Of a stretch of 40,671 bases of DNA, positions 3,786 to 40,671 are shown piece after piece. The number at the start of each line of letters is the position of its first letter. Within the stretch, counting starts at the first letter, position 1. The notes under the pieces were generated by a model. That model was given only the letters and a program-made list of their open reading frames with translations, made no database searches and was not told the origin of the DNA. The stretch is from Tubiluchus corallicola (Eukaryota > Animalia > Priapulida): assembly GCA_030141605.1 (NCBI GenBank), contig JAQGDQ010001444.1, positions 1 to 40,671 of the forward strand. Reading direction: 5' to 3'. Both the position numbers and the translations under genes were made by a program.

Positions 3786-3936
3786 ACTACGGCCAAATCA
3801 CGTTGAAAACACCGGGTCTCGTCTGATCAATGCCTGGTTAGTGCTTGGATGGGTGACCTCCTAGGAATACCAGGTGCAGTAGGCTTGCCGGATGTCCACA
3901 CTGTATCTCGACACTAGGCAGAGGAGCTGCACAAGC
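3786..3936 (+). mobile_element. 5S rRNA-derived SINE (SINE3-type), degenerate fragment
   Basis: TACGGCCAAATCACGTTGAAAACACC..GGAATACCAGGTGCAGTAGGCTT matches 5S with the box A region deleted, followed by the body start (CACACTGTATCTCGACACTAGG) seen in the other three copies. Confidence 0.85.
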
Positions 3937-5132
3937 TTATAAAGCTACAAGTTTATAGACAGAGCATAATGGATGACGTCAGAACAATGGCTTTGCATCA
4001 GCAGTTTTCCAAGCGAAAATTGCCAAAAATAGAACATCTAACTAATTCGTCAGTACTCCTTTTGGTGGACATGTCCTAAAATATAGCCCACACCATCGTG
4101 TAGCCCTGTTTTTCCGCTTTCTAAAGAGCTACATATCTCCTTCCGACAGTCCCACCAGGCGCCGCTAAAACGTTTTTTCCGCTGTTTCGTCAAAATTTCG
4201 AAAAAAATCCGTGTCGGAGAGTTGTGTCCGGGAAAACGCCCGTTGACCTCTCGCAAATTCTAAATACACCTATGACACACACCGATTAACGGGCTATCTA
4301 TCCATAGCCAGCACCACCCATGGCCCGTTCCCGAGTTCCAGATTTCAGACGTATAACTTTTGCAAAAAACGGCCGAAAATGGCCATTTTGGAGGTATGAG
4401 CAACTGCGTGTGCCGTTTTCAAGAATCATCACTTTTCCTGGGAATAATTGATGCAGAAATTGTCCCTTGTCTTCTTTTTTTACATGCACAGCTTCCTTAA
4501 AATTCTTGGTCAATTTTCTGCACAAAAGTCACTTACATTTAACCATCGAACTTGAATCTTTTTTGTGCAATTGAATGCATAAGATTTATACAATCTACAA
4601 CTCAGTTTGCATGCACATCTGCTAGCTTCGAAACAGAGGACATAGGTTATTAACTGCATGTGTGTGAGGGTGTGTGTTTGTAGAGAGGGGGAAGGCGAAC
4701 TGCCAAGGTATCAATATTCTTCATAGATCATTATCTGGCTTTAGCTTTTAGGATCACTATCTGGCATTGGCTTTTAGGAATAAGTTTGCAAACTATAAAT
4801 AATGATCCACCACAGTTGAAATATGACAGGAAGCTGTGCAATCGATTTTATAACTTGGGCATAGAACCATCTTGTTGCAATATCTTTGCTTGCTGGGAAG
4901 AAAAAAAACAACATCAGCACTACTAACTATTTATTCACTAACAAATGCTGTAAGCATATCAATATAAGGACATACAAAGTTCGATAATTGTGATTATACC
5001 AAGTTATTTGGTAGAAAAGTTGGAATAATAGTGTCTCATTATAATGGCATAATGCAGAAGTCAGGTTCATTTTGTCATTGTTACATTTCTCTTGCAGTGT
5101 TTATTTTGGAGCGCATTGTAAAATATATAATA

Positions 5133-6103
5133 CCGTAAAACGGGGTGAGTTCGCCACCCGAGGGTGAGTTCGCCACCCCTTACGTATTGGCCATTGTAGG
5201 TTTGCTGTAACTATTGTTCAGTGTTTAATGAACAGATATCATGATCACCGTCATTATAAACAGTTTGCGACAGTTATCTTCTTTCAATTCGCACTAGAAG
5301 TATTCCATTCTGCGCTACATATTATTTGTCTACTATTTCTTGCTACTTAACATGCCACGCACCTGCACCCCTGTACCGGGTCATAGATACCAAAATTATA
5401 CCCCAGAAGCTCTGGAAGCTGCCCTGCATGCCGTCAAGAATACCAACAGGACAATCAGCCCAGCGGCGAGGCAATTCGGAGTTCCAAGAAAGACCATTTC
5501 TGACAAACTCTCAGGAAGTCATCCGCGGAAGACCGGAGGTCAGCCAGTGTTCTCCGCCGCTGAGGAGCACGAAATCGCCAACACTCCCAGTGGCCGCTGA
5601 GTGGGGGTTCCCAATGACTGCCATCGATCTCCGACTAGTGATTAAGAGTGTTCTTGACGCGAAGGGAATCCAGGAACGACGATTCAAGGCAAACACCCCT
5701 GGAATAGACTTTGTCAAATCATTCGCCCGAAGGAACAATCTGGTTTTCAGAGTGGCTGGCAACGTCAAGGGCGCCCGCAATAAGATCAGTGCACAAGACG
5801 TTCAAGCCTTCCTTGCCAACGTAGAAGTTTCTATTTGAAAACTAAAACTAGACATTTTTTATAATTTTTTCATAGGGTGGCGAACTCACCCCCAACCAGC
5901 CAATCACAATCAGTTAACTTCAGCTGCCTAGAATGGCATTAAACAGTGTTAAATTGTTAGTGGCGAATTCACCCCACGATAGTGTTTTATTCGAAGGGCA
6001 ATATAAAGCTTGAACTAAGAAAATCGGTTGGCTAATTCTCTTGCTATGGCAGGAAACGTAAAAAAATACCCCTAAAAAGTGGCGAACTCACCCCGTTTTA
6101 CGG
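5133..6103 (+). mobile_element. pogo/Tigger-like non-autonomous DNA transposon, copy 2 (971 bp), with the same truncated frameshifted transposase (5352-5838)
   Basis: Same TIRs, TA flanks at 5131-5132 and 6104-6105, same length as copy 1, few substitutions. Confidence 0.92.
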
Positions 6104-6294
6104 TATAACTGATTTACTACAAAATTCTGGAATTAACTAATTTATATGTGCTGTCTGCTGTTTTTTGTCATAACATGATCAGCTACCAGGTTTTAACAGG
6201 CTAAGTCATCATAGCTTTGTTTATAAACTCATGATAATTTAAAGATTGAAATGATGACTTTTTTTACAATATTAGCAAACTTTACTACTTAACT

Positions 6295-8214: not shown

Positions 8215-8491
8215 AAGTTTGATTATCATTTATTTGTATCAATAGGATATTGGTGTTAAACACAAAAACATAGCATAAAATTTAATGATCTAATTGTAAA
8301 GAATTGCTTAAAAGCAAATCATTTCTACAAATGTACATACATATGTCACACTTGAAGTTTGATTATCATTTATTTGTATCAATAGGATATTGGTTAAACA
8401 CAAAAACTTAGCATAAAATTTAATGATCTAATTGTAAAAAATTGCTTAAAACAAATCATTTCTACAAATGTACACACATATGTCACACTTG
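8215..8491. repeat. direct tandem duplication, two units of about 140 bp
   Basis: AAGTTTGATTATCATTTATTTGTATC...GTCACACTTG at 8215-8354 and 8355-8491 with few differences. Confidence 0.9.
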
Positions 8492-8895
8492 ATATTCTTT
8501 AAACTTATTATGTTAATTGAAATTTAAAGCTCAAGTTTTGTTTTAAAACGTTTATATTAATACACTAAGCGTAAAAACTAAACTTATACAATTCACGAAC
8601 ATTCACAAATGTTTTCATTAAACAGGCAGTTTGCTCAAACAAACCAAGATGTTTTCAAAATTTGTTCCGGTTTTGCAGAGGGTCCAGAAAATACTGTAGC
8701 GGAAAATAGTGTGAGAAGATTAGCATTCATTCCAAGCATGCATTCGTTCTCAGAATGTTCTATTCTTTAGTTTTTTGTTCATTTTTTCGAAAATGTGATA
8801 CATTAGCGATTGGTTTAGTAGTTACAATACATTTTGCAATTGCCACTGTTGTGAAAAAATGAAATATTAATGAACATGTTGAAATTATATAACAA

Positions 8896-9967
8896 CTACA
8901 AAATTAAGCACATCCATTCTGATGTTTTATTCCTGTCAGGGTGGCCACTCCTTTCATGGAAAGTATTTCTCCTTGAATGCATGTGTGCATTATTGCAAAA
9001 GGCTGAGTTGTAATGGCTTTCTTCTTCCACCGCGAAGTTGTAACTTCTAATGTGCATATGTGGATGTGCTCCCTGCTTTAAGCCATATCCATTGTTGGGG
9101 GGAGCACATGTATAAAGTGGTGGTTTTGGACGGCTTTCACATTGTCTTTGAAAGACATCATTTCTAGAGTACATGCGTGGGTTTGCTTCTCCGATCTCGA
9201 CAAATTCATTGCTTATACGAGTAGCTAGAATAGGTTGGGTATCAACTCTGCTAAATTCAACACTGACAGTTTTACATGGGACTGATTTTTGGTGACTTGG
9301 TGGTTTTGTTTCCAGGGAGACATTCCTAGTATGCACGAAGGCATCTGCTGCCTCAAATCTACCAAAACCTATGTTATTGTCACCTATGTAGAAACCAAAT
9401 GTAACGTGATCCCATCTACAGTATTTCTCATCAAGTATTCCACATTTTTTGTCCACAGAAACATTATATTTTGAGAGCATAGAGTCTGGCTTCCATATCC
9501 ATGTTTCGGCAGTTTCTGCACTGAGATAAACCATGCTGTTTTTTTTTACCTTTGGATAATTGTCAAATTCTTTAATACCTTGGGGGTGTATGACTATGAC
9601 ATGCATCACCTGTTGCTTATATAGAAATGCTCCCAACACCTTCAGGCTTGGCAGCTTACCCCCGCAGCATGCCATACCATATTTGGTTATTAAATCGGAT
9701 AGTTTGTAGCTGATTACATAATTTCCATATCTTGAACTGTGACGTCTAAATACAGGTGAGCAGCAATAGTCATTTATTTTTGAGTCTGTTAATTTGTAGG
9801 TGATGTCTATGCTCCACCAAGAAAGATTTCCAAAGTTGCGTTTCCGTTTTCCTATGAATTTTCCTTCCTTGGTTATCTTTAGCAAGGCATGCAGATTTGT
9901 ATCATGTCTCAAATTTGTAAATTTAAATTCTAGTGAGTGATGTATAGCTGGGTATTTAATATTCCAT
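8896..9967 (-). CDS. putative endogenous viral ORF2 (unknown, possibly matrix-like); natural start appears shifted by one base
   Basis: Intronless open frame of more than 338 codons directly downstream of the N-like ORF and a gene-junction-like motif; contains PPLY (PPxY); no family recognised by eye. Confidence 0.55.
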
Positions 9968-9969
9968 TC

Positions 9970-9990
9970 ATGTGTTTTTTTTTCTAAAAT
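9970..9990 (-). promoter_or_regulatory. putative mononegavirus gene-end/polyadenylation plus gene-start junction
   Basis: Sense strand ATTTTAGAAAAAAAAACACAT between the two ORFs; similar ATTTTCGAAAAAATGAACA at about 8776-8794 after ORF2. Confidence 0.55.
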
Positions 9991-10033
9991 TAAGTTGAAG
10001 TTGCAATCACAGAAAAATACTGGTATTCTTTAT

Positions 10034-11293
10034 TTATAGGTCATACTCATCTTCTGATTTTTGATCAGGTACTTCTCTTGTCCTTATCCCTCTTCCTCGT
10101 CTTAAGGTGCTGTACGTCTTGTCGATGCTTTTCTCTAATCCCATATCTTCAAGGGATGCCGCGGCCTTATCTGGGCCTTCCAAAAAGGCTTCCATGCCAT
10201 CTCTGCGAAGATTTTTGCCTACATATCGAGCAAACTTTTTTATTCGATCTGACACATCCGGTGCTTTGTAGTTCCAGATATAATTCCTTTCATCGACTAA
10301 AACATCTGGGTCAGAAATAATGTGCATTAATACTGTTGTTAAAACTTTGTTTCTTGCAGGACTAAGAGTTAAGAAGGCATTTTTGCAGAAGATTTTTGCG
10401 TAAATATAATCCACCTTCTCAGAGTCGACATATGTTTCCAAAAAATCTTTAAGACTTTCTAAATCTCCGTCGTCTAAATGTCCATCGGTCCAGAAGGATG
10501 TTATTTTTCTCACAAGCGTATTAGTGTCGAAGCCAGTCACATCGCAGGCTTCAGCTAGGAATTTTGGAAGAGCTAAAGAGGCCCATGCCAGATGTCTCAT
10601 TACTGAAAAGACAATTAAAGTATAGAGACCAGCTATTCTTTCTTGTTTTTTTTCTTGAACAATTTGAAGCCCATAGACTATGAGTGCTTGAGCTAGGTTG
10701 TCAGGTTCTGAAAAAGCAGAATGCATTGACAGAACTTCATCTTCTGTGAGAGTTAATGTTAAAATTTGGTAGGTAGGAAGGATATTTTTCATGGAACTCT
10801 GAATACCATGGGAGAATATTTTTCTCAGAACTTTTGGTGGATTGCCGGCACATCTGGTGAGGACCATAATAAGAAATCCAAGAGAGTCTAAGAATGATTG
10901 ATGAGTCTGAAAGCATTCTGTTCCTTTAAAGTAGTGCTCTATTTTTCTCCAAGAATCTGAGTGTAATGTTTGATCAGAGGCCCCAGTTAATCGACCATAC
11001 TGAGTTTTGAGCTCAGCAATTCTTAAGGTTATGCGCTCCGTGTCAAATTTAGCATCTGGAATCCATTCTTCTAGCTGTCTCCTAATGGAGGTGTTGACAA
11101 AGCTCCATTCTCGGCCTACTACCCAGGCACCCAACACGGCTCCTGCGTTTTGGGCGTGCTCTCTGATGAGCGTCATTTTTAGAGCTGTTTCTAGCCAATC
11201 ATAAGATCCTTCTATTGAGGAGAACCTGTTTGGGATTTCGTTGCTCGACCACTTGACATTCCCTACATCAAAAATTACATCAAATTCCGCCAT
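10034..11293 (-). CDS. endogenous viral element: Mononegavirales (rhabdovirus-like) nucleoprotein-like ORF, 419 aa
   Basis: Intact intronless ORF from ATG GCG (MAEFDVIFDVGNVKWS..); N-typical size; RHLAWASLALPK and YIYAKIFCKNAFLTLSPARN recall the conserved C-lobe motifs of cyto/nucleo/varicosa-type rhabdoviral N; charged C-terminal tail. Confidence 0.72.
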   Translation of the reverse strand: MAEFDVIFDVGNVKWSSNEIPNRFSSIEGSYDWLETALKMTLIREHAQNAGAVLGAWVVGREWSFVNTSIRRQLEEWIPDAKFDTERITLRIAELKTQYGRLTGASDQTLHSDSWRKIEHYFKGTECFQTHQSFLDSLGFLIMVLTRCAGNPPKVLRKIFSHGIQSSMKNILPTYQILTLTLTEDEVLSMHSAFSEPDNLAQALIVYGLQIVQEKKQERIAGLYTLIVFSVMRHLAWASLALPKFLAEACDVTGFDTNTLVRKITSFWTDGHLDDGDLESLKDFLETYVDSEKVDYIYAKIFCKNAFLTLSPARNKVLTTVLMHIISDPDVLVDERNYIWNYKAPDVSDRIKKFARYVGKNLRRDGMEAFLEGPDKAAASLEDMGLEKSIDKTYSTLRRGRGIRTREVPDQKSEDEYDL

Positions 11294-11486
11294 TAGTGGA
11301 ACGAATCTCTTCAACAGTCAAGACACGTCTGGACTTTTCAACTTCAAATTTGTTGGTGTTGTTTTTGGTCAAATAGAATCCTTTATTCTAACAATGTTGC
11401 AACATCAATCCACTTGTCCCATCTCAAATGCATTTTAGGATAGAAGAGTTCAGTTGCCCCTCTACGCATTGACCCGCAGCACTTTT

Positions 11487-11567
11487 CTGTAACAAAAATT
11501 AAGTGTTAGTTAACAAGCGAAACCAGTTTTTTTGCACACGTCACGTATATACATATAATTTTCTTAC
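11487..11567 (-). other. putative 81-nt spliceosomal intron upstream of the N-like ORF
   Basis: AAG|GTAAGA donor, AACTAAC branch-point-like motif, TTTTTGTTACAG acceptor. Confidence 0.6.
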
Positions 11568-14429
11568 CTTGTCCTGTTATTTAATACATAGATCGCAGAA
11601 TGTTAATCAACTAGTGGGGTCCACCTCGCAATGGCCATTCAGGCAGTCTGTTTTGGTTGTAAATCTGAAACTTGCGCAAGTTGTGCTTCAGATTTAACTC
11701 GTCGGAAAAGATGTTCTTACGCCTCCTCGAGTGAACCAGTAAACTCCCGTGGGGGAGGCCAACATAAGATGCCACCATGTTTTTGGTGGCCTGTTTGTAC
11801 GCCTCCAATGTGAGCTGACTATCTTCAGTGACAGTATCAGTTAATAGTTGGCACTAATTATGATGAAAATACCTGGATTTTATTTGGAAACGACGAGGTA
11901 GCGCGAGATTCTTCGGCGTCGACTTACGGTCTGTTTAAGGACGAAGAAAGTCGAACATCGATAACACTGAATTATCTTGTGCAGGTCAGCAACCACTGTC
12001 CTGAGTGTGGGAAGGTGATTCCCGACTGGAAGTCGACAAAATTGCATGTGAAAGAAAGCCACGAATTGGTCGTCGATAGGCTAAAGTTTCCATTGCCGGT
12101 ACCTGGAATCTCCCAAGTTCAGCGGTATTTATGTTAATGTACAGCAGAAGTATGTGTCCGTGAGCAGTGAAGAGAGTATAGAATGGTGAAGCATTGTGCT
12201 TGGGGTACATATGATGTGGATGTTCGGTACAACAAAAAACACTTAGACAAGTGTCACCAATTGATAGAAGCATGCAGGAGGGCACGTGAACCAATTCAAA
12301 ATTAATAAAAATCCCGCTGTCTGTTTAGAGATTCCTAACATTTTATTCATACTGCTGGCTACATGTAGAAATGTGACATGCTATATAAAGACTTAACACA
12401 CTGGAACAAGATACTCGTTACTGTACATCTTGACTGTAATTATTAATAGTCACTAAGTTTAGTTTTCTTCTAACTTACTGCTTTTTTTTATTTAATTCAT
12501 TCAATTTTCATGTTTATTGCAGGAATTTAAATCACTATATGCAGCTACCAAAAATAACTTGTATTAGATAGTAGTAAATAATTCTACTTAAACAATCTAC
12601 TTTATTCAAACATATTTGAAATGCTACTGATATCTCACAAAATTACTTATTGCAGGAAATAAAAGACACGTTATTTACTGGTCGTTTACTAGCTGATATT
12701 TTAAACATACTTTTTCTACTGGCAATAAATTAAACTGCTACATGCTACTACCAAACCAAACAAATACCAGTACTGTATCATATATGTGATAATAATAAAA
12801 CGGTAGTGATAAATGAGCTACGTAAACGATTTAGACAATGGAAACAAATCTCAAATGGTTGCTAATATTTCAAAAAAATAAATTACTAAAGCAAAGAATT
12901 AGTGGTTATAATAGACAACCATTATTTACTTGTCATTTTTCTGCTATTTTTCAAATTTTGCTCTTTTCTACTGGTTTTTAAACAAAAGACCTTGGCAGAT
13001 GACAACACAGTCAAATAGTGAATGTAGAAGTTTGAAGATTAGCAACTTGAAATAAATTTTGTGACATGAAACTTTTGACTTAAAACTGTTGTAAGTCCTG
13101 ACCAGTAAAGGCCATTTATTCCCTAGCCTCTATTCAATGATTTTCAGTCTCAGTCATTATTATCACTCTGTTCTGTGTGCTCAGTTCCTGGTTGTGTATA
13201 AATTCCTATCACAATAGTTCCTAAAATGTGGTCCTGTGTTGGACCGTCCCACTGGAGTCGGTTCATGCAATATGAATGAAATATAGGCGTAGATCTTACG
13301 TAAAAAAACTTACCCGAGTGTAATCAATTTCTCAACAATATTTATAAAGTATTTAATTTATAATGCGCTAGTAATTTATCAGCGTAATTGCTTACATAAA
13401 GTAAAGTACCACAAAGTCGAAATTTTGAATATACACTTGTTTCACCATTTAACTTCCTCTATCTTTAACGCCCCCCTATGTGTGCAAAATCGAAACTGAA
13501 ACTTTTGTTGCTTCCAAGAAGGCGCTAGTAAAACAAAGTCGAAGCGTGTTGTTTACATATAATAGCTGTAAACTAATCTTTCATTAGTGAATGAGTCACT
13601 GGTAACTTTTTCGTAAAAATATGCTTTGGTAATGGTAGTAAAAGTCATGAATGCTTTAAATATTTTATTTTGAAATGTTTTATAAGTAAAAACTGCGATG
13701 TAGTTTAGTCCTAGTTGCAGGTGCTAATTTAATTAAAGGGGGAAAAAGGGCAGTTTTAAAGTATATCCCAAAAACTTTAAATGCAAAGTTATATTTCTTA
13801 GCATTGCATATTGTGTTGACTTAATAAGTGAAAAAAAGTAAATTCCTAAAATATTTGCACCACGTGGCAGCACTACATCGCTATGCTTTAAAGTTATAAT
13901 ATTGGTTTACGGATCTCTCGACTTATCTCAAGTGTCGAAGTGTTAAACTTCGAGACTCAACTGTAACAATACCATAGATATGGTTTGTGTAGATCAAAGA
14001 TCTTGGTGATTGCTTAGGAGTGTTCTGCATTCTAGACTGTCATGTTGCTCTGATCTTCTTTGTTTAAGTTCATAATTAGTTTAATAAATACTACTTTATT
14101 ATGCACGCATTTGTCTGGTTGCTAATATTATTGTAGCGTGTAACATCAACTACTAGGGTCTGGGGGAGTGGTGTAAGCTCCTGCAGCAAGGCCGAAATTC
14201 TAGAAAGTAGATTAATTATTTCACAAATTGTTTCATTCTGTTTTATTGCATAGTAATGCATACACCCACTAAATTTATGGGAAATTATGAAAATATTTAT
14301 AACCTATTCGAGATTTCAGCAATAAGAGCCCACGGTAATAATGATAATTATCATGCACAGACTATTTTATAAAAAAATTATAGTGACTATAGTGGTTTTG
14401 CAAGTTTTGCGGAAAATGCTGAAAATATT

Positions 14430-23314: not shown

Positions 23315-26300
23315 CTGCAAAAATACAAAATGGTTGATTATTTTCATACATTTTTATGTCAGTACATGTATTAGAATCTTTTCGAGTCAGATAATTGGCT
23401 ATGCCACTACTTAACAAAAATTACGGCCATATCACGTTGAAAACACCCGTTCTCGTCTGATCACCGAAGTTAAGCAACGTAGAGCCTGGTTAGGGCTTGG
23501 AAAGGTGACCGCCTAGGAATACCAGGTGCTGTAGGCTTGCGGGATGCCCACACTGTATCTCGACACTAGGCGGAGGAGCTGCACAAGCAGCCAACGGCTA
23601 GAGGGCGGAGGAGGTCAAGTGACCCATGTGTAGAGGAGTAAACCTTCCAAATCAGGAGTGGAGCCCCGAAGGCGGACCAGTGCAGCAAGCTCACTGAGTC
23701 CGGCAGCTCCTGCAGCTAACCTGGTGCCAAACGTATCGCTCTGCTTTCCTTTGGACTACACCAGGGAGGAAGAGAGGGGGTTCCTGTTGTCTGGGCAACT
23801 CAGGATCTCCATACACCTTACGCAGGCGTGCGCCCTGGAGAGGCCAGTGGTTCAAGGGTCGGACTGCTCAGCCACAGTCGACGCTGCAGCTCCATCAATG
23901 TGATCAATAACTGACTCTCTTGGCGCACACTCCATTGTCTTCTGAGACAGAAGGATGCCAACATAACAACATTATATTTAATAAAATCAACAAATTAACG
24001 TGCCAAGCTGCACATCTAAGTAAAGATTTCCAAACACAAACCATAAAACTGCAATTACAATATGCATGTTTTCAGACTAACATACGTTAAGGTGTATCAG
24101 GAAGCAAAAACGTACCCAGGTAATAGTTAACGGAGCTATCATGCCTCCAACACGTGATGTACTAGAGCATAAGCCTAGGCCTCCATTTCTGAAATTTGTA
24201 AAAAAAGATTGAGTATTTAGCAACTCCTATAGAAAAAATAACCAACCAGTGAATATAAGGTTTTCTGCATGGCCCTAGTCAATATAGTTACTTCTTGGGA
24301 ATCAGCTGCCTTGAGTCCTGAGAGATGCTGATTTGGTATTTATTAAACGTTAGACTTATGGGTAGGTGAAGAAACTCTTAAGCATTTATCCGCACTAGAT
24401 GCCAACTCATCTAGTATTGATGTAGACCTTTAGGAAATTGATGTTTGGCTTGTTCTGACATTTACCGTAACGCCTGGTTTTTGATTGCTCATGCAAGCGA
24501 TTTTATTCGTCACTGCCTACAATTTCACAGGATGAAATACTGTTCACGATCTGCCTTAGGTTCGCTGCTCACTGTTGTGTTTTGTTTCTCTCGGAAGGCT
24601 CGTAGAGAAAGCTAGAAAACACGCCGTTAAATGTTATTACTTTATTGAGCGAGAATTCTTACAAAACAAAGATGAAGGACGTTGAAACGATTGCTATAAA
24701 CGTGAAAATGTGGAAAACGTTTAAGTATATCTGAAAATGTAAGTATTACGTCCGTGAGATCTGCGTGCTCTGTGTGCGATGTGCTCTGGTGTCGGCTTCG
24801 CTGTACATGGCGCGCTGTAGAAACTTCCCGAACAAATGTTCGAGAACAATCCAGAGGTAAGGCGGTTATTCCGACGGAACATTCTACGATGTTCTATGCA
24901 ATTCTACTTGACGTCAGCGATCTCCACAACACTCACAAGCAGCCAAAGATGAGCTGTAGCTACAATTATTTCCACCTCGAAATGATCCAATTCCGACTTT
25001 CATATTTCGCGCACAGTACAATTGCCCGTGTCATCTCAGTTCTGCACCTAGTTTCTGAAGGTAATGGAATTCCATCAACTCCACGTCTATATCAACAGCT
25101 TAAACGTGAGAACTCAATACTTGTGTTTTTCAATGTTCTGTAATAGCTCTTGTATTCTGTTAATCATCGGTGATTTACCAGTCTCTGTACTCTTAAGCTT
25201 GTTATCTGTGCTCATGGAGCTACTCGCTCTTATATCAAGTGCTCCATTAGAAATTATATACCCGATCTTGCAAGAGGTAGGTCTACTTAAGTACCTCTAT
25301 AACTAAAAAGTTTAGTTATAACTTTAACTTTAGTTATAATGTTCTAACTACAACTTTTGCTATAGAGGTGCTTGGCCTACTGTAGACATCTGTATCTGAA
25401 TCATTGCTTCCGTCTGTTGCTTTCACCCACGTGACACATTCTGAATCGTTCCTTCCACCTGTTGCTTTCACCCACGTAACACATTCTGAATCGTTCCTTC
25501 CGTCTGTTGCTTTCACCCACGTGACACATTCTGAATCGTTCCTTCCGTCTGTGGCTTTCACCCACGTAACACATTCTGAATCGTTCCTTCCGTCTGTTGG
25601 TTTCACCCACGTGACACATTCTGAATCGTTCCTTCTGTCTGTTGGTTTCACCCACGTGACACATTCTCAATCGTTCCTTCCGTCTGTTGCTTTCACCCAC
25701 ATGACACATTGCAAAATCTTGTTGCCAATCTGATTATCTGTGACATGACGTCTACCTCGCAATTCATTGCTCATCAAAAATCTGTTGCTATGCCAATCCT
25801 GTTATTCCTACTTTTGTGGATGGTATCTTCAAAATCTCTCCCCATTGGTGCGTAAATGCCGACAATTTTCTACGAGTTCTCGTGCTGCTTCTGTCTTCCC
25901 TATTCCCAGATTTTTCCTTGGGCATCATGTCTGTTATTGAAAAAGGGGTAAAGTATCTCTACGGAACATGTTTTAATATTAAAATTTGAACAACTTGCGT
26001 GCTTCTATGGTTCAGCCACATATCAACCATTTTTCTACCCTTATTTATTTGGAAAGTGGTGCTGACAAGCCACTTGTGAGGCAGTGTGTTGTTGTTTTTA
26101 CTGTATTAACTGTTGTCTGTCTTATCTGTCTGCAGAGCAGTTTTTTATTTTGAATTCTGCGTGCCCAATGTCTATAATAGGCGTAGTTGGCCAACGATCT
26201 TTGTACACCTGTAAGATGAGTTGATCTACAACTATACATGGTCCTCACATTTTTGCGGAAATTGTTTTCTAATCAGTACATGCAACATACCTAACGACTG

Positions 26301-29800: not shown

Positions 29801-32211
29801 TGTGATATATTTTTAAAAATCTGACGCTAGCTCTCGGTTTTGATTCTAGAATTTAAGTTTCTCCTACACAAAGTAAGATTAAATGTTTTTTTTTTAAAAA
29901 AAACAGATCGCTTTAAATTTTCACTTGTTCCCACTTCAGACAAAGCATTCAATGGTAGCTAAACTTTAAACAGTTTCTTTTTGTGTTTTGAAAGTTTTAT
30001 TTACATAGTGCCATTTAGATTTAGATTTACAGTTGCGAATTTGTTGCTCTAACCGTTTTTTTACTACGGCCAAATCACGTTGAAAACACCGGTTCTCGTC
30101 TGATCACCGAAGTTAAGCAGTGTAGAGCCTGGTTATGGCTTGGAAGGGTGACCGCCTAGAAATACCAGGTGCTGTAGGCTTTTTGGATGCCCACACTGTA
30201 TCTCGACACTAGGCGGAGGAGCTGCACAAGCAGCCAACGGCTAGAGGGCGGAGGAGGTCAAGTGACCCATGTGTAGAGGAGTAAACCTTCCAAATCAGGA
30301 GTGGAGCCCCGAAGGCGGACCAGTGCAGCATGCTCACTGACTCCGGCAGCTCCTGCAGCCAACTTGGTGCCAAACGTATCGCCCGCTTTCCTTTGGACTA
30401 CACCAGGGAGGAAGAGAGGGGGTTCCGGCGGTCTGGGAAACTCAGGATCTCCATACACCTTGCCCAGGCGTGCGCCCTGGAGACGTTCAAGGATCGGACT
30501 CTCTTGGCGCACATTCCATTTTTACTAATGGAACCGCTTTTACCAACAACCGCTTTTTACTAATCTGTGCAAAGCTGAAACGACAAATTTCATTTATATC
30601 ATGTGTAGTATATATGACCAATAAAGATCTGTATGTCTATGTCTAGATAAAGAAAGCCGAAGTTTGATTAGATCATCTTTCTTGGCGTGTTTGTCTCTGT
30701 AGTTAAAATACGGTTAATTTCCGTACTCACTTCGAAGTTTCACTAATAGTTACACTTGCTGACTACACATTATTGCTGGGTTCACATTTTGTACCAGTAT
30801 TAGGGAAAAGTAGAAACTTATCCTGTTTTAACATCCATGGGCTTACCAAATAAACAGCATAAGTGTCACACATGGGCTTACCAAATAAACAGCATAAGTG
30901 TCACACATGGGCTTACCAAATAAACAGCATAAGTGTCACACATGGGCTTACCAAATAAACAGCATAAGTGTCACACATGGGCTTACTAAATAAACAGCAT
31001 AAGTGTCACACATGGGCTTACCAAATAAACAGCATAAGTGTAACACATGGGCTTACCAAATAAACAGCATAAGTGTCACACATGGGCTTACCAAATAAAC
31101 AGCATAAGTGTCACACATGGGCTTACCAAATAAACAGCATAAGTGTCACACATGGGCTTACCAAATAAACAGCATAAGTGTCACACATGGGCTTACCAAA
31201 TAAACAGCATAAGTGTCACACATGGGCTTACCAAATAAACAGCATAAGTGTCACACATGGGCTTACCAAATAAACAGCATAAGTGTCACACATGGGCTTA
31301 CCAAATAAACAGCATAAGTGTCACACATGGGCTTACCAAATAAACAGCATAAGTGTCACACATGGGCTTACCAAATAAACACCATAAGTGTCACACATGG
31401 GCTTACCAAATAAACAGCGTAAGTGTCACACATGGGCTTACCAAATAAACAGCATAAGTGTTAAAAACACTCGCAATTTGGGCGTCTTGTATATGTCCAG
31501 TAGAGTAAATTTTTTTCCGTTTTCCTTATAGTAGGAAACTGCTGATTGCTTTTGTATCATAGAAAGACAATGTTCGTCTAAATGTACTTTGTTCATTTTA
31601 CTTGCTTTCTGAAGAACTTCCTCTGCCTTGTCTGTGCGATTCTTGGCTGCCAGCCAATGTACAGATTCGGGCAATATCCTGTGAAACACAAAAATATTCA
31701 GGCATATATATCAAGCGCAAAAATGTTATTAATTTTAACCCTTTCATACCCGTTGTATCCCGTTGGATACGAGAATATTTTCTGCCTTTAAAATTAATAA
31801 AATTTTAAAACTGACAGTTATTTGATCTGTTAATAGTTATTTTGATTTAAGCCAATAACAATAGACCAAAAATGGTGATAAAATGGCAAACTAGAAAATC
31901 TACATTGCATAAAAAACTGTGCAAGGTACAGTACTTTAGAGACGACTTTGTACAGATCAGTATAGCATGCATACTAAATGTCTTAAATACTTTAAAAAAT
32001 TATCAGCAGTTGCAAAATGAAGCATATTTTATGCTTCCATTGAATCCGAATCTATCCCGTGGGATACAGGCTATATTTAGCACGCGGGCACAGGTAGAAA
32101 AAATAATTATTATGTATAAACAAGATGGACATACTTAACAAAAGTACCAAGCCTATTATTCTTATTAAAAAAATAATTTGGGACTGAAAAGGTTAAGAAA
32201 TAAATAGAGAC

Positions 32212-32242
<31 letters not shown>

Positions 32243-35200
32243 GTCCTGGTAAGTCCTGTCCTGGCACTGGATAATTAACCGAATATGCCTGTACAGTATT
32301 ATTTAAATTAAATACACATAGCTAAGTGGACAGTGAAATGGATACAAAACACCAGTTTAACGTGTTGACCAAAAGTTTCTTTATTCTGAAAGACAATTAT
32401 TAACATTTAGTTTAATTTGCATCGAGTAGAAGAAAATTAGTTGCATGATTAAATGTACTGCTATAACTAAGTACTGATATAAAAAATATGTAAACTATAT
32501 TGAAATTAATTAATAACAACTTGCGTTGTTAGAGCCTTTAGCAGTTACAAGACAAGTAGTCTTAAGAACAATAATGTCACAACAATAAATTCGTAAGAAA
32601 TTCACAGTCATAATGCTCATCACAGACAGAAAAATAGAGCAATGGCGGAGAGAACTAAAAGACGGGTAAAATGTCAAACAACTACTATAGCTATAGCTCA
32701 CGAAAGGCCAAAATGCTAATGTATTCAACGATATTAGGTGCTTCAATTTTAAAAGAGTGACTACTGTAAAAGGTAAAAAGCCTACTAAATCAACAAACAG
32801 GTGGCAGCACCGTGGCAGTAATTGAAAACTAAATTAAAACCAAAAAAGGGTCTATGCACCCACTACAGACAGTTCCATCAATTTCCTACGAGCCATTCAT
32901 TTGGGCAATAGATAGCTTACAAACATAACACGTTATTTCGTTTTTACATACCAATAGTATGAAAAGGTGAGTAGAAGTGGAACTGTGATAATAATTTGAA
33001 TTTTTCTCCAATCATCCACTGCCAAGGCGATTAAAGGCGTCGTCATAATGCCTACACTCCATAACATTTGATCGCATGTGCCCACCCAAGCTCTTGAATC
33101 TGGTGGAACAGATTCACACAGTAGACAAAACATGGACAAATAACCTCCCTATAGAAAATTAATTATTTTTACATATCATTTTTGCCATTTGCATTACGAG
33201 GTATTTTATTACTGTTGTGAAAAAAATTTGCTACTTTAAAAGTGAAAAACTAGACTTACTGGCTTTTTACTCAAGAATTTAGAACTAGAGCCTGGTTAGT
33301 ACTTGGATGGGTTCCCGCCTAGGAATACCAGGTGCTGTAGGCTTGCGGGATGCCCACACTGTATCTCGACACTAGGCGAAGGAGCTGCACAAGCAGCCAA
33401 TGGCTAGAGTGCGGAGGAGGTCAAGTGACCCAACGGCCATGTGTAGAGGAGTAAACCTTCCAAATCAGGAGTAGAGACCCGAAGGCGGACCAGTGCAGCA
33501 TGCTCACTGACTCCGGCAGCTCCTGCAGCCAACCTGGTGCCAAACGTATCGCTCCACTTTCCTTTGGACTACACCAGGGAGGAAGAGAGGGGGTTCCTGC
33601 TGTATGGGCAACTCAAGATCTCCATACACCCTGCCCAGGCGTGTGCCCTGGAGAGGCCAGTGGTTCAAGGGTCGGACTGCTCAGCCACAGTCGACGCTGC
33701 AGCTCCATCAATGTGATCAATAACTGACTCTCTTGACGCACACTCCATTGTCTTCCGAGACAGAAGGATGCCAACAACAACAACTCAAGAATTTGCATAA
33801 TATACCACTAACACATATAATAAACACTCATCCATTGAATGGAATTGTTCTACATCTTCTTAATGTTACTTAATACATATTCGTTCTTTATAGTTGCGCC
33901 TAAATTGTCTGACGGCTTTGAATTGCCGTTTTTCGTACAGCTGTCACCTATCTAGTTACTGAGTGCAGCCTGGATTTGAACCAGGGTCATTCTGCTTTAA
34001 ACTGCAGGCGTTGTAGACCAGTAGGCTACCAATAATAACGGGAAGAGCAAAGTTCATCTCTTACAGATGGCCATCCAAATTCAGCATTTCCGTTACTAGA
34101 TCGCTTGCATTGTCGTTGTAAAAGTGCGCCCACCCCCCAACTTTGAGCCAGTGGTCCGGAGGAGGGCTGTAAGTTTCCTCATCGTGGCCCAGAGACTCAT
34201 TTTCCTGCAATTAAGCATTTTGGGGGTCTAAAGGGAATCTAAATTAGGATGGGTTTTTTCAAATGTGAAAAAATTGCTCAAATTTGGTGGTTATAAAATG
34301 TATTTTTAATAAACTGCTTCATATAATAGAATATAATTAATGTTATTTATACCATGGTGCAAGCATATACTATAGACTGTGTACTATATACTATATACAT
34401 TCAGAGCATTATGTGCTTCAAAATCTGAACCAAAGAATGACCGCGCACATACAGCGGCAGAAATAAAATTGAAGCAGTGCAAATACATGTAACTAAACAA
34501 TTTACGTTTTCTAGACATTTCTAGACGCTTTGCTTCGCAGTCTTTACTTGTTCAATTTTCTTCCCTCCTTTATTTCTGTTGTGTTTTGTTTCTCTCGGAA
34601 GGCTCGTAGAGAAAACCAGAAAACACACCGTTAAACATTACTACTTTATTTAGCGAAAATTCTACAACACAAAAAGATGAAGGAACAAGAAATGATTATA
34701 CTAAACGTGAAAATCTGGAAAACTTTTAAGTAAGTATGCGTAAGTAAAAGTCCGTGTTAGATCTGCGTGCTCTATGTGCGATGTGCGATGTGCGATCCGG
34801 TGTCGGCAGCCTTATATAGCGCACTGCAGAAACTTCTCGAACAAATGTTCGAAAACAATCCAGAGGGTAAGCCGGTCATTCCGACGGAACATTCTACGAT
34901 GTTCTATGCAATTCTAATTGATGCCAACGATCTTCACAACAATTTCACAGGACAAATTTTTGACGCCCTTACAAGAAATTCTTACACGGGGGGGGGGGCA
35001 CTCGATGTTTCCCTTCTGTCCACCAGTCATAACGCCAATGACAGCTAGCAAAAGCATGATTCTAACTAGTTAGATTATTTCTGTATGAATCAATGAATCA
35101 AAAAGATAAAATAATGAACTATTGGACTGCATTGATCACAGAGGAATACGGTGGTCTAGTGGCTTAAGGCGTTTGCCTTGTAAGCAGAAGACCCCTGTTC

Positions 35201-38200
35201 AAATTCAAGCTGTATTTTACTTCTTCACATTCCTTATCTTTCGATTTTGTATCAAAATTTAATTAATTATGGGCTTGTTAATGATTAATACCATCATTAA
35301 TGATAATCTCGATCTAAGATAAGATTGTAATATAGGTTTTACATGTCAAATGTAGACCTGCGTTAACTCAAATGTAAATTTAGGTAATTCAAATGTGTCT
35401 TGGTAACTCAAATGTAGACGTAGGTAGCTCAAATGTGTTAACAATGGTTTTCTAGAAATTTTAAGCGTTTTTGGTAAGTCAAATGTAGACACATGTCAAG
35501 TCAAATGTGACAATGGTATCTCAAATGTGGATAGGTGGTAAAGTTTAAGGAAATAAAATTTAATCTCCTTTAATCTTAATTTAATAATTGCTGTGAAAAT
35601 AATAACTTTATAGGTCAACTAATAGTTCACTAATATTCTGTAAACTTTACATACCATTGGAACTCTTAGAGAAAACAATACATTCTTAAAATAAACAATG
35701 TTTCTTGAGAGAAACTAATTCATTAATGCAGTGCTAATGCATTACTTGAAAAACTAATTAGTGATTCACTGTTCATTGGGAAGTGGGAACCAATATATTC
35801 TTTTCTATGGACGTTGTGGTTTATCAAAGAATTTAGTTTGACGATAAACAACACATTTTTCAAACTTATGAAAGAGGTGATGACGGTCTTTGGTTCATCT
35901 TTTTGTAATTTGCACTTAGATCAGTTAATTACCGATTTATTCAAAGTAATGCATCTACATTTGACTTACCTAAGTCACATTTGAGTTACCAAAACACATT
36001 CGAAATTCCTATGTCTACATTTGACTTACCAAAGTCACATTTGAGTTACCAAAACACATTCGAAATTCCTATGTCTACATTTGACTTACCTAAGTCACAT
36101 TTGAGTTACCAAAACACATTCGATATTCCTGTGTCTACATTTGACTTACCTAAGTCACATTTGAGTTACCAAAACACATTCGAAATTCCTATGTCTACAT
36201 TTGACTTACCTAAGTCACATTTGAGTTACCAAAACACATTCGAAATTCTCATGTCTACATTTGACTTACCTTAGTCACATTTGAACTTTCCTATGTCTAC
36301 ATTTGACTTACCTAAGTCACATTTGAGTTACCAAAACACATTCGAAATTCTTATGTCTACATTTGACTTACTTAAGTCACATTTGAACTTTCCTGTGTCT
36401 ACATTTGATGTGTAAAACCTATAATTAGACATGCAGCTGCTTTTGTTTTTGGTTTTTCGCTACCCTTTCTCCCATGTTCGTTTGTATTTTTCTGTATTTT
36501 ATTTTCAAATCATTGTAAATTTATGGAGAAAAATAAAATTACTATAGGTTTTACACGTCAAATGTAGACACAGGAAAGTTCAAATGTGACTTAGGTAAGT
36601 CAAATGTAGACATAGGAATTTCGAATGTGTTTTGGTAACTCAAATGTGACTTAGGTAAGTCAAATGTAGACATAGGAATTTCGATTGTGTTTTGGTAACT
36701 CAAATGTGACTTAGGTAAGTCAAATGTAGATGCATTATTTTGAATAAATCGGTAATTAACTTATTTAAGTGCAAAAAGATAAACCAAATTAAAATTATAT
36801 TTTATGGTCATGGTGCTATCAGCAGCATCAATTTTTATATATTATATTTAATTAATTTGCAATTATTTGAATGGATGCTAATGCGTTTTTCATATGTAAA
36901 GAAATTGTTTATTTGATAAGAACACTTAAAAGCGTTGTACATAAATAAGTTAACAATTATACAATTATAAATATAAACACCATTCTACATTTTATTTGTT
37001 AACGTTTTACAAAAACATTTTTTTGAATAATTAATGAAATCTGCAAAATTAAACGTGTAATCAATGCTCAAGACCAGCATTTTAAATATATAGTACCGCT
37101 GACTCATAAATAATAATTAAACAACAAACATGAACAAAAGTTTGATATGAACAAGATTTACATCAGAATATCATCGTAGGTTAAGCAGCGTGGTACATAC
37201 TGCTGCATATGCCGAAAATAATTGGCTGCATCTGCGGGCGTTATGATATTAACAGACTGTTCTGCTAACTGAGCTAATGTTGCCATTCTCTGACCATGAT
37301 TCTGCACTAGAAGATTTTCTCTAATATCTGCAAGAAGACGCTTCATTTCGGCCTTCCACTGACTGAATATGTTCTCGACAATATTTAAAAAGGGAGAATA
37401 AGGAGGAAGCCTCTTAATTTGAATTGGTAGGCGCAAATCTGGCGGCAAGGCTGCTCTCCTGTGAGCAGGTGCATTGTCAAAAACGAAAATTTTTTCCCGA
37501 CCATCGTCATGCAGGTTATCTGTTGCGTCTTGAAGAAATGCATTAAAACGTTCTCTGTTCATTCCACCTTCTGTTAAGGAATGATATATCAGGCCGTTTG
37601 TATTGCTAACTGCAAAAGTCATGGTAAGATTGCCTCCGCGACGACCAGCCACAACTCGCACGGCTCTTTGACCCTGTATTGCCCTTCCTCTCGTCCTCTT
37701 CATCCACAGGTTTATGCCCGCTTCGTCAATGAATATAATTTCACATTGCAAACCTCTCTCCATCAACCAGTGTGCATAAAGAAAGCGTTCGTGCTTCACT
37801 CTTTCACTATTTCTATCCGCTACAGCGTCTTCTAACTTTTTCATTACAATCAGACGCCCTTTTAACACATTAGCTAACGTTGAACGGGATATGCGTTTTT
37901 CTCAGGCATGTCTCGGCGCATAGACGCAATGATTTGCTCTAGCGTAAATTCTGGATGAGTCTCTATAAGATTAACAGCATAGTCTCCCATTTCTTCATCG
38001 ACGAGCTTTCTTCTGAAGCCGCCACGTGGTTTGACAATTCTACCCTCCAGTGCTCTCTTAATAATAGCCCACGCAGTTGATTTTTTATACCAAGTTGCCG
38101 TGCAAGATGTAAGTAATCATCACCTCTTTCATAACTTTGAAAAATGCGCTGTTTATCCTCAAACGAAATTCTTTGATAAACCATAATGTCGGCAGAAAAG

Positions 38201-39648
38201 AGTAAATCGGTTCCCACTTCCCAATGAACAGTGAATCACTCACAAATTAGTTTTTTAAGTAATGCATTATATGCAGTATAGCACTGTATTAATGAATTGG
38301 TTTCTCTCAAGAAACATTGTTTATTTTAAGAATGCATTGTTTTCTCTAACAGTTACAATGGCATGTAAAGTTTGCAAAATATTAGTGAACATATAACGTT
38401 GTTATTTTAACTTAAGAGCAATTATTAAATAGAAATTAAAGAAGATTAAATTTAACATCCTTAAACTTTAAAACCTATCTACATTTGAGATACCAATGTC
38501 ACATTTGACTTGACATGTGTCTACATTTGACTTACCAAAAGCACTCAAGATTTGTTTAAAACCATTGTTAACACATTTGAACTACCTAAGTCTACATTTG
38601 AGTTACCAAGACACATTTGAGTTACCTAAGTCTACATTTGACTTAACGTACGTCTACATTTGACTTGTAAAACCTATATTACTATTACTGTTACTGTTAC
38701 TGTTACTGTTACTGTTACTGTTACTGTTACTGTTACTGTTACTGTTACTGTTACTGTTACTGTTACTGTTACTGTTACTTTTACTGTTACTGTTACTGTT
38801 ACTGTTACTGTTACTGTTACTGTTACTGTTACTGTTACTGTTACTGTTACTGTTACTGTTACTGTTACTGTTACTATTACTATTACTATTACTATTACTA
38901 TTACTATTACTATTACTATTACTATTACTATTACTATTACTATTACTATTACTATTACTATTACTATTACTATTACTATTACTATTACTATTACTATTAC
39001 TATTACTATTACTATTACTATTACTATTACTATTACTAATACTAATACTAATACTATTACTATTACTATTACTATTACTATTACTATTGCTATTGCTATT
39101 GCTATTACTATTACTATTACTATTACTATTACTATTACTATTATGTTGCTATGCTATATTGTTATTGCTATTGCTATTGCTATTGTTATTGTTATTGTTA
39201 TTGCTATTGTTATTGTTATTGTTATTGCTATTGCTATTACTATTGCTATTGCTATTGCTATTACTATTGCTATTGCTATTACTATTGCTATTACTATTGT
39301 TACTGCTATTGCTATTACTATTGTTATTGTTATTGCTATTGCTATTGCTATTACTATTGCTATTGCTATTGCTATTACTATTGCTATTGCTATTGCTATT
39401 GCTATTACTATTGCTATTGCTATTGCTATTGCTATTGCTATTGCTATTGCTATTGCTATTGCTATTGCTATTGCTATTGCTATTGCTATTGCTATTGCTA
39501 TTGCTATTGCTATTGCTATTGCTTTTACTATCACTATCACTATCACTAATACTAATACTAATACTAATACTAATACTAATCTTATTAGTATTACTATTAT
39601 TGTTACTATTACTATTACTATTACTATTACTATTACTATTACTATTAC

Positions 39649-40668: not shown

Positions 40669-40671
40669 CTG

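Follow-up and report, generated by a model that had tools for sequence, protein, structure and literature searches.

Contig JAQGDQ010001444.1 of the priapulid Tubiluchus corallicola (assembly GCA_030141605.1), analysed here over its full length of 40,671 nucleotides (nt; the window), carries on its minus strand a 1422-nt insert that splits a coding exon. The insert holds an ATG-started, stop-free open reading frame (ORF) of 419 codons, whose product is likely a very divergent rhabdovirus-type nucleoprotein (N). For a frame of 419 codons, the expected chance count is about 1e-9 in the window at its base composition. Only 4 nt beyond it on the same strand lies a second frame of 377 codons from stop to stop (10029-8896), which has no ATG near its start and its first methionine at codon 119. 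Of the 24 frames of at least 120 amino acids (aa), none outside microsatellites is longer than these two, and the mobile-element frames of the window are partial or short. The features of the locus are collected in Table 1.

Table 1. Coordinates of the insert and of the exon that it interrupts (window positions).
Feature	Position	Strand	Basis
Splice-acceptor-like intron end of the interrupted gene (CTAAC, T-rich tract, CAG)	11487..11509	-	inferred from sequence
Interrupted coding exon of the host gene, 5' piece	11395..11486	-	tblastn of P0004
Left AACA, target-site duplication and/or viral gene-start signal	11395..11398	-	reuse of P0004 residue 49
Putative 5' untranslated leader of viral mRNA, 101 nt, no ATG	11294..11394	-	sequence
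Intact 419-codon ORF, likely divergent rhabdovirus-type nucleoprotein (N)	10034..11293	-	PF03216 E 2.2e-5, profiles
Putative 3' untranslated end: AATAAA (10034-10029), gene-end-like TTTTAG (9989-9984), seven A (9983-9977)	9977..10033	-	
Right AACA, target-site duplication	9973..9976	-	1422 nt from left copy
Interrupted coding exon, 3' piece (earlier "second gene"), still open	8896..9972	-	tblastn of P0004, depth

The interrupted gene

A homologue search with the second frame in a collection of 5.8 billion proteins returned a sole homologue, P0004, a protein of 337 aa from a 1488-nt contig. Compared with the window by tblastn, residues 23-49 of P0004 match 11475-11395 (19 of 27 identical, E 3e-8 within the window), and residues 49-284 match 9975-9277 (177 of 238 identical). 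Both pieces lie in one frame with N between them, residue 49 is used twice (on the 11395 side and at 9975-9973), and relative to P0004 no target was lost at insertion. Because the similarity to P0004 continues upstream of N in the same frame, the second frame is the downstream part of the interrupted target gene rather than a viral gene. Its first 19 codons (10029-9973) are merely the 3' untranslated end of the insert. Upstream, the similarity begins 12 nt downstream of the acceptor-like site, and an in-frame stop lies just before that site.

The stretch, or part of it, was found in four sequencing runs from two studies. Four runs were compared with the window as contigs: X1 and X2 come from one sample (S1), X3 from another sample and another study, and X5 from a third sample labelled as the same species. 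Over the interrupted gene, depth in X1 and X2 is close to that of two alleles, and X5 carries the region at 88-91% identity; the locus therefore behaves as single-copy and inherited. P0004 is the only homologue found for the gene; no other appeared in metagenome, prokaryote, viral or phage collections, and Pfam, PHROGs, NCBIfam and PDB gave no match. The two known members, the interrupted gene (8896-9972 plus 11395-11486) and P0004, form an orphan family with a conserved core of about 260 aa, in which all indels are in-frame. An AlphaFold model of the gene failed, with a predicted local distance difference test score (pLDDT) of 32. The Atlas gave one lead, at rank 19 with a score of 0.88, to a DarT/PARP cluster with PF00644 on 38% of its members; together with the H-x-T start motif of such enzymes, it serves as a lead only towards an ADP-ribosyltransferase-like protein.

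A preliminary description of this DNA had seen in the two frames a two-gene element of a negative-strand RNA virus, ending at 8776. The intact 419-codon frame, with its motifs HLAWASL and YAKIFCKNAFLTL, is present as described, and the mobile-element ORFs are, as noted, partial or short. The second frame is likewise open and on the same strand, but it ends at 8896 and is part of the interrupted exon, with P0004 similarity on both sides of N, and not a separate intronless gene. Used as tblastn queries against the window, 137 rhabdovirus ORFs produced nothing better than E 0.028. Six weak rows at E 0.028-0.05 were rejected as chance.

Identity of the 419-aa protein

In a Pfam scan up to E 1, the protein has a sole match, Rhabdo_ncap_2 (PF03216; E 2.2e-5). 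This family takes in the N of novirhabdoviruses and plant nucleorhabdoviruses, whereas a vesiculovirus N falls to PF00945 in the same scan. The match is collinear, with protein residues 134-325 on model positions 107-293, and the model ends at residue 325 here versus 306-347 in four scanned known members. Profiles were built from natural rhabdovirus genome stretches in IMG/VR, using 4 novirhabdovirus, 7 plant and 13 vesiculovirus-group N (the last set lost 1 of its 14 loci, which had no N frame). Against the profile of the 7 plant N the protein scores 8.2 bits, which 0 of 500 shuffles reach (shuffle maximum 5.8), and another profile containing plant N gives 8.0 bits, above all 500 shuffles (maximum 4.9). 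Only profiles containing plant N placed the protein above all 500 shuffles. The protein and the 7 plant N share the C-lobe motif YAK..FL.LS..RN, in a stretch that reads YAKIFCKNAFLTLSPARN here and YARLVNNTFFLNLSSRRN and similar in plant N. Over residues 134-325, identity is 16-24% to the 7 plant N and 12-15% to the 4 novirhabdovirus N. Among the three groups compared, the protein thus appears nearest to plant nucleorhabdovirus N.

Searches for homologues gave none among 4603 candidates from the 5.8 billion-protein collection. A repeat protein, P0003, from a collection of 1.84 billion proteins was rejected as a spurious homologue. The cognate virus or a relative was found in 0 of 13 pattern matches among IMG/VR viral contigs and in 0 of 136 among metagenome contigs. 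PDB sequences gave no significant match, and Pfam, PHROGs, NCBIfam and PDB sequences no cellular or transposon match. The best Atlas match, with a score of only 0.76, was not accepted.

Several of these comparisons count against a rhabdovirus identity. The PF03216 match, at 24.5 bits, stays below the gathering cut-off of 25 bits. With the novirhabdovirus, vesiculovirus and all-group profiles, 210, 189 and 25 of 500 shuffles, respectively, reached the score of the protein. Alignment by hhalign was in-register but not significant with the N of novirhabdoviruses (E 0.18) and of the vesiculovirus group (E 0.21), while the best match with 5 nucleorhabdovirus N was off-register (E 0.008). A single-sequence AlphaFold model was unusable (pLDDT 36), and the 0 Foldseek matches obtained with it at E 0.001 are meaningless given the failed model. 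Given the sub-cut-off PF03216 match, the profile results, the identity of 12-24% and the lack of relatives in these searches, the protein is likely a very divergent rhabdovirus-type N of an undescribed lineage that falls formally below family membership.

Anatomy of the insert

From its 5' end, the insert consists of AACA, the 101-nt leader, the ORF, TTTTAG followed by seven A (A7), and a second AACA, the two AACA copies forming a 4-bp duplication. An AATAAA sits at the stop of N. Published rhabdovirus signals resemble these ends. The core gene start of animal rhabdoviruses is UUGU, whose mRNA-sense form is AACA (PMC4334499), and nucleorhabdovirus gene starts read UUG(U) (PMC5210121, Table 2). 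Gene ends read UCURUC-U7 in novirhabdoviruses, which is AGATAG plus A7 in mRNA sense (PMC2820013), and AUAAUC-U6 in one varicosavirus, which is TATTAG plus A6 (PMC5210121). Rhabdovirus genomes fetched for comparison carry gene starts and ends like those published. Gene-start and U7 gene-end signals are thus matched at the ends of the insert, as short motifs and with two of nine A given to the target. The nine A at the 3' end amount to no more than a templated A7 and two target A. AG followed by at least seven A occurs four times in 38.5 kb, counting both strands. Because the AACA start and the TTTTAG-A7 end match rhabdovirus signals and AG-A7 is rare in these 38.5 kb, the insert appears to begin and end as a complete monocistronic N mRNA would.

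Relative to P0004, the target-site duplication doubles one target codon; it is only 4 bp long and may coincide with the viral start. Two other repeats were considered as the duplication. The 6-bp TTAGAA (11391-11386 and 9987-9982, 1404 nt apart) was ranked lower because it leaves six surplus codons relative to P0004 and disagrees with the overlap of the X5 contigs given below. The 7-bp TTGCAAC was rejected as out of frame. The insert lies in sense orientation to the host gene, and a stop in the leader (11385-11383) ends the host frame after three codons. This observed stop likely makes the insert-bearing allele a null of the host gene.

Integration, zygosity and age

A single X1 contig covering 9902-11438 with 1 difference crosses both junctions, with 44 and 71 host letters beyond them. 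The left junction is also crossed in X2 and the right junction in X3, and the same right junction is therefore present in two samples of two studies. Because DNA contigs cross both junctions, the insert is covalently joined to host chromosomal DNA and is likely an endogenous viral element (EVE). The X1 insert contig has a depth of 189, and single alleles at flanking heterozygous sites have depths of 158, 165 and 197 of 319, 353 and 364; in X2 the insert has a depth of 9.2 versus 12 of about 20 for a single allele. With the insert at single-allele depth, the simplest reading is that sample S1 has one insert-bearing and one empty chromosome.

An X5 contig departs from the window at 11401, with 37 letters remaining. 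If it resumes at 9972, the AACA junction, its overlap with the following X5 contig is 29 nt, versus 11 nt for the TTAGAA junction. An overlap of 29 nt is also that between adjacent X1 contigs. P0004, depth and this contig geometry together suggest an empty allele, although the X5 letters there are not displayed. The X5 contigs give no cover over the N frame, and this was not counted as absence of the insert.

Of 587 insert letters compared between X3 and the window, 2 differ, whereas divergence in the host-gene contigs of X1 to X3 is 1.4-4.4%. Beyond these two near-identical copies, no orthologue turned up. The insert allele would therefore be young relative to the diversity of the locus. At 0.3% divergence, each copy would be expected to have about 0.1 nonsense change, so the intactness of the N frame needs no selection, and the frame is presumably open owing to its youth.

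These results bear on the remaining claims of the preliminary description. Its proposal of a recent insertion agrees with the low divergence of X3, and the DNA across the host-virus junctions, on which it had made the integration depend, is present in the X1, X2 and X3 contigs. Its alternative, an element retained as dominant-negative N or piRNA source, would not be needed to account for the intact frame, for which youth suffices. The undescribed virus lineage that it suggested is borne out in the protein and contig collections searched, and a cellular or transposon protein as best match, which it had named as refutation, was not found in the four databases listed above. Its comparison with cyto-, nucleo- and varicosavirus-type N is supported for the nucleorhabdovirus part, given PF03216 and the nearness to plant N among the three groups compared.

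Origin of the insert

Taken together, the insert is probably a young, segregating passenger, a retrocopy of the long interspersed nuclear element (LINE) type made from the N mRNA of an unknown rhabdovirus-like virus and splitting a host coding exon. During infection, a capped, polyadenylated N mRNA (AACA, 101-nt leader, ORF, TTTTAG-A7) would have served as template for a LINE-type reverse transcriptase, and a nicked target strand with TT at its end would have primed the synthesis by pairing with the A tail. The 4-nt AACA common to the 5' end of the mRNA and to the target would then have closed the opposite junction, with one AACA copy left on each flank. This copying would have taken place recently, in the germ line, by a host retrotransposon. 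The allele is likely still segregating in the population, and the insert is most likely a passenger without function of its own. Full-gene EVEs of RNA viruses with a target-site duplication and poly-A have been explained as LINE retrocopies (PMC2987831; PMC4865735). A 5S-headed repeat in the window, which looks like a short interspersed nuclear element (SINE), hints at LINE machinery in this genome.

A number of observations weigh against this account. The duplication is just 4 bp and the A tail just 7-9 nt, and the nick site differs from the L1 consensus. Contig depth is not a copy number, the empty-allele joint is not among the 15 of 43 joints listed, and the host-gene status of the target depends on its single-copy depth, the acceptor-like site and X5. 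X1 and X2 are one sample, which may be the source of the window, and one X2 contig has 1 gap letter within 10237-11438 that is absent in X1. The X3 junction contig has a two-allele-like depth of 16 and 12 gap letters (position not displayed), the size of a 4-residue indel relative to P0004; on this evidence the insert may be frequent and old enough to lie on more than one haplotype. Invertebrate EVEs, finally, mostly lack target-site duplications and tails (PMC2987831, PMC4231630).

A rival reading is a different capture route, in which viral complementary DNA produced by some other reverse transcriptase would have been used to mend a break through microhomologies at AACA and the A-run. The very short duplication and a tail equal to the templated A7 would fit such a route, as would the insect and crustacean EVEs without duplications or tails (PMC2987831; PMC4231630). 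It is nonetheless rather unlikely: the ends of the insert are the predicted ends of one monocistronic mRNA, no target was lost relative to P0004, and a comparable bat retrocopy of an endogenous bornavirus-like L element (EBLL) has a gene-end signal, a short poly-A and a target-site duplication (PMC4865735). A functional gene-trap EVE is less probable again. There a transcript from the host promoter would end at AATAAA, and re-initiated N or small RNAs would block the cognate virus and keep the allele. The sense orientation behind an acceptor-like site, the ATG-free leader, the intact frame, the AATAAA and the presence of the insert in two studies agree with it, and it has precedents in itEBLN (PMC4865735), in small RNAs from a dog-whelk rhabdovirus N EVE (PMC6085071) and in the polymorphic exonic AlbFlavi4 (PMC6379468). 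Against it, the intact frame is explained by the low expected number of nonsense changes, N would be a downstream cistron, and the sense orientation would yield sense small RNAs. Marginally more doubtful still is its fullest form, in which a segregating, expressed N of a deep lineage near the plant nucleorhabdoviruses, from a virus that nonetheless infects an animal germ line, traps the host promoter by disabling one allele of a conserved orphan gene and protects carriers from its cognate virus.

A further rival takes the 419-aa frame as non-viral. A retrogene of cellular origin, or a fragment of some unknown mobile element, would agree with the sub-threshold Pfam score, with the lack of a homologue in 5.8 and 1.84 billion proteins and with the host-type AATAAA at the N stop. 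The sole family match is a collinear one to rhabdovirus N, however, 0 of 500 shuffles reach the plant-profile score, and rhabdovirus-like start and end signals stand exactly at the insert ends; with a best Atlas match of just 0.76 and no cellular or transposon match in the databases searched, a non-viral origin is quite improbable. Two further readings have hardly any probability left. If the locus held a negative-strand virus fragment with two genes, N and another behind it, this would account for two open frames side by side on one strand, separated by a gene-end-like signal, but the second frame continues upstream of N, has no start and a depth unlike that of N, and matches 0 of 137 rhabdovirus ORFs. 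An assembly chimera or contamination by live virus could be argued from X1 and X2 as the possible source sample and from run types that are guessed or unknown; it is opposed by junction-crossing contigs in three runs of two studies and by the clean duplication of one target codon.

Comparison with known elements

The preferred reading, a LINE-type retrocopy of one N mRNA, has its closest parallel in the endogenous bornavirus-like N elements (EBLN) and in eEBLL-1 (PMC4865735; PMC2987831). Like the insert, these are single mononegaviral genes with an intact ORF, a gene-end signal, a short A tail and a direct repeat, and they are also read as LINE-mediated copies of one mRNA. Unlike them, the insert appears to encode a rhabdovirus-type N, has a 4-bp instead of a 9-bp repeat and keeps a start-like AACA; it is likely unfixed and young, where they are more than 11 million years old, and it lies inside a coding exon. 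Whole-gene EVEs that carry a target-site duplication and poly-A are a typically mammalian kind; in insects (PMC2987831) and in an isopod (PMC4231630) they were not apparent.

Rhabdovirus N EVEs are known from mosquitoes and ticks (PMC2987831; PMC6379468), and one in the dog-whelk is a probable source of small RNAs (PMC6085071). Like the insert, known N-only rhabdovirus-like EVEs of animals comprise some with intact frames and variable presence. Those described have N of the PF00945 or lyssavirus-like type and, in insects, no duplications or tails, whereas the insert has a PF03216-type N, a duplication and ends like those of an mRNA. For the described elements, expression and small RNAs have been demonstrated. 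AlbFlavi4, in exon 2 of Aedes albopictus AALF003313 (PMC6379468), is likewise an RNA-virus insert within a host exon that varies in presence. It is, however, a 512-bp flavivirus fragment in a cluster of PIWI-interacting RNAs, while the insert is a whole mRNA-like copy with an intact ORF that stops the host frame. In horseshoe crabs, EVEs within spliced transcripts are known (PMC12282059).

On the viral side, the PF03216 N of plant nucleorhabdoviruses and novirhabdoviruses shares with the insert N its length, the collinear match and the C-lobe motif. The gene end of the insert, AG-A7, is novirhabdovirus-like and its start, AACA, nucleorhabdovirus-like. Novirhabdovirus-like viruses of invertebrates include mussel chemarfal virus 1 (PMC10458741) and viruses of tunicates (10.1101/2024.12.15.628590). 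In the open-access literature, supplements aside, no report of the present element was found.

N-gene EVEs as a class are common. The interest of this one lies in its being a clean mRNA retrocopy, apparently young and still segregating, which stems from an unknown rhabdovirus-like lineage and breaks up an exon of the host. The insert would be a near-pristine record of a complete transcription unit of a negative-strand virus, with start signal, leader, N and end signal, and it would bring the hallmarks of an mRNA retrocopy to an invertebrate, where such marks are reportedly mostly missing. It would also show an RNA-virus insert causing an insertional mutation in a coding exon. With its lineage absent from all searched collections, the insert implies recent or current infection of the germ line and could serve as a probe for the virus. 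If the allele is polymorphic, function becomes accessible by comparison of genotypes, and if the protective reading were true, carriers and non-carriers would form a natural experiment on EVE-derived immunity.

Other features of the window

The window is animal DNA with a GC content mostly of 30-45%, and it contains remains of DDE transposases. Its base composition and high heterozygosity are in keeping with an invertebrate. Spliced exons of an SLC22-type transporter lie at 40435-40671 and about 33000-33150, on the minus strand like the insert. A dispersed repeat of about 500 nt, 90-95% alike between copies, occurs at 23419-23923, 30062-30483 and 33228-33736, and partially at 3832-3936. Two of its copies are headed by a full match to 5S ribosomal RNA, and the repeat looks like a 5S-derived SINE, presumably of the SINE3 type.

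Just upstream of the interrupted exon, a low-copy repeat runs from a sharp start at 11583 to about 13000, with many loose ends and a depth 2-4 times that of its flanks; it contains a broken C2H2 zinc-finger-like frame (11832-12137, plus strand; sub-threshold in Pfam). Some 450 nt downstream of the stop of the interrupted gene, a unit of about 138 nt is duplicated in tandem (8215-8492). An inverted duplication of 976 nt, 99% alike, pairs 4-979 with 5130-6105, and each arm has a transposase-like frame of 192 codons. Finally, at 35300-38500, nested inverted repeats of a 60-nt tandem unit surround a Tc1-type DDE_3 frame of 247 codons (37158-37901) in a foldback-like arrangement.

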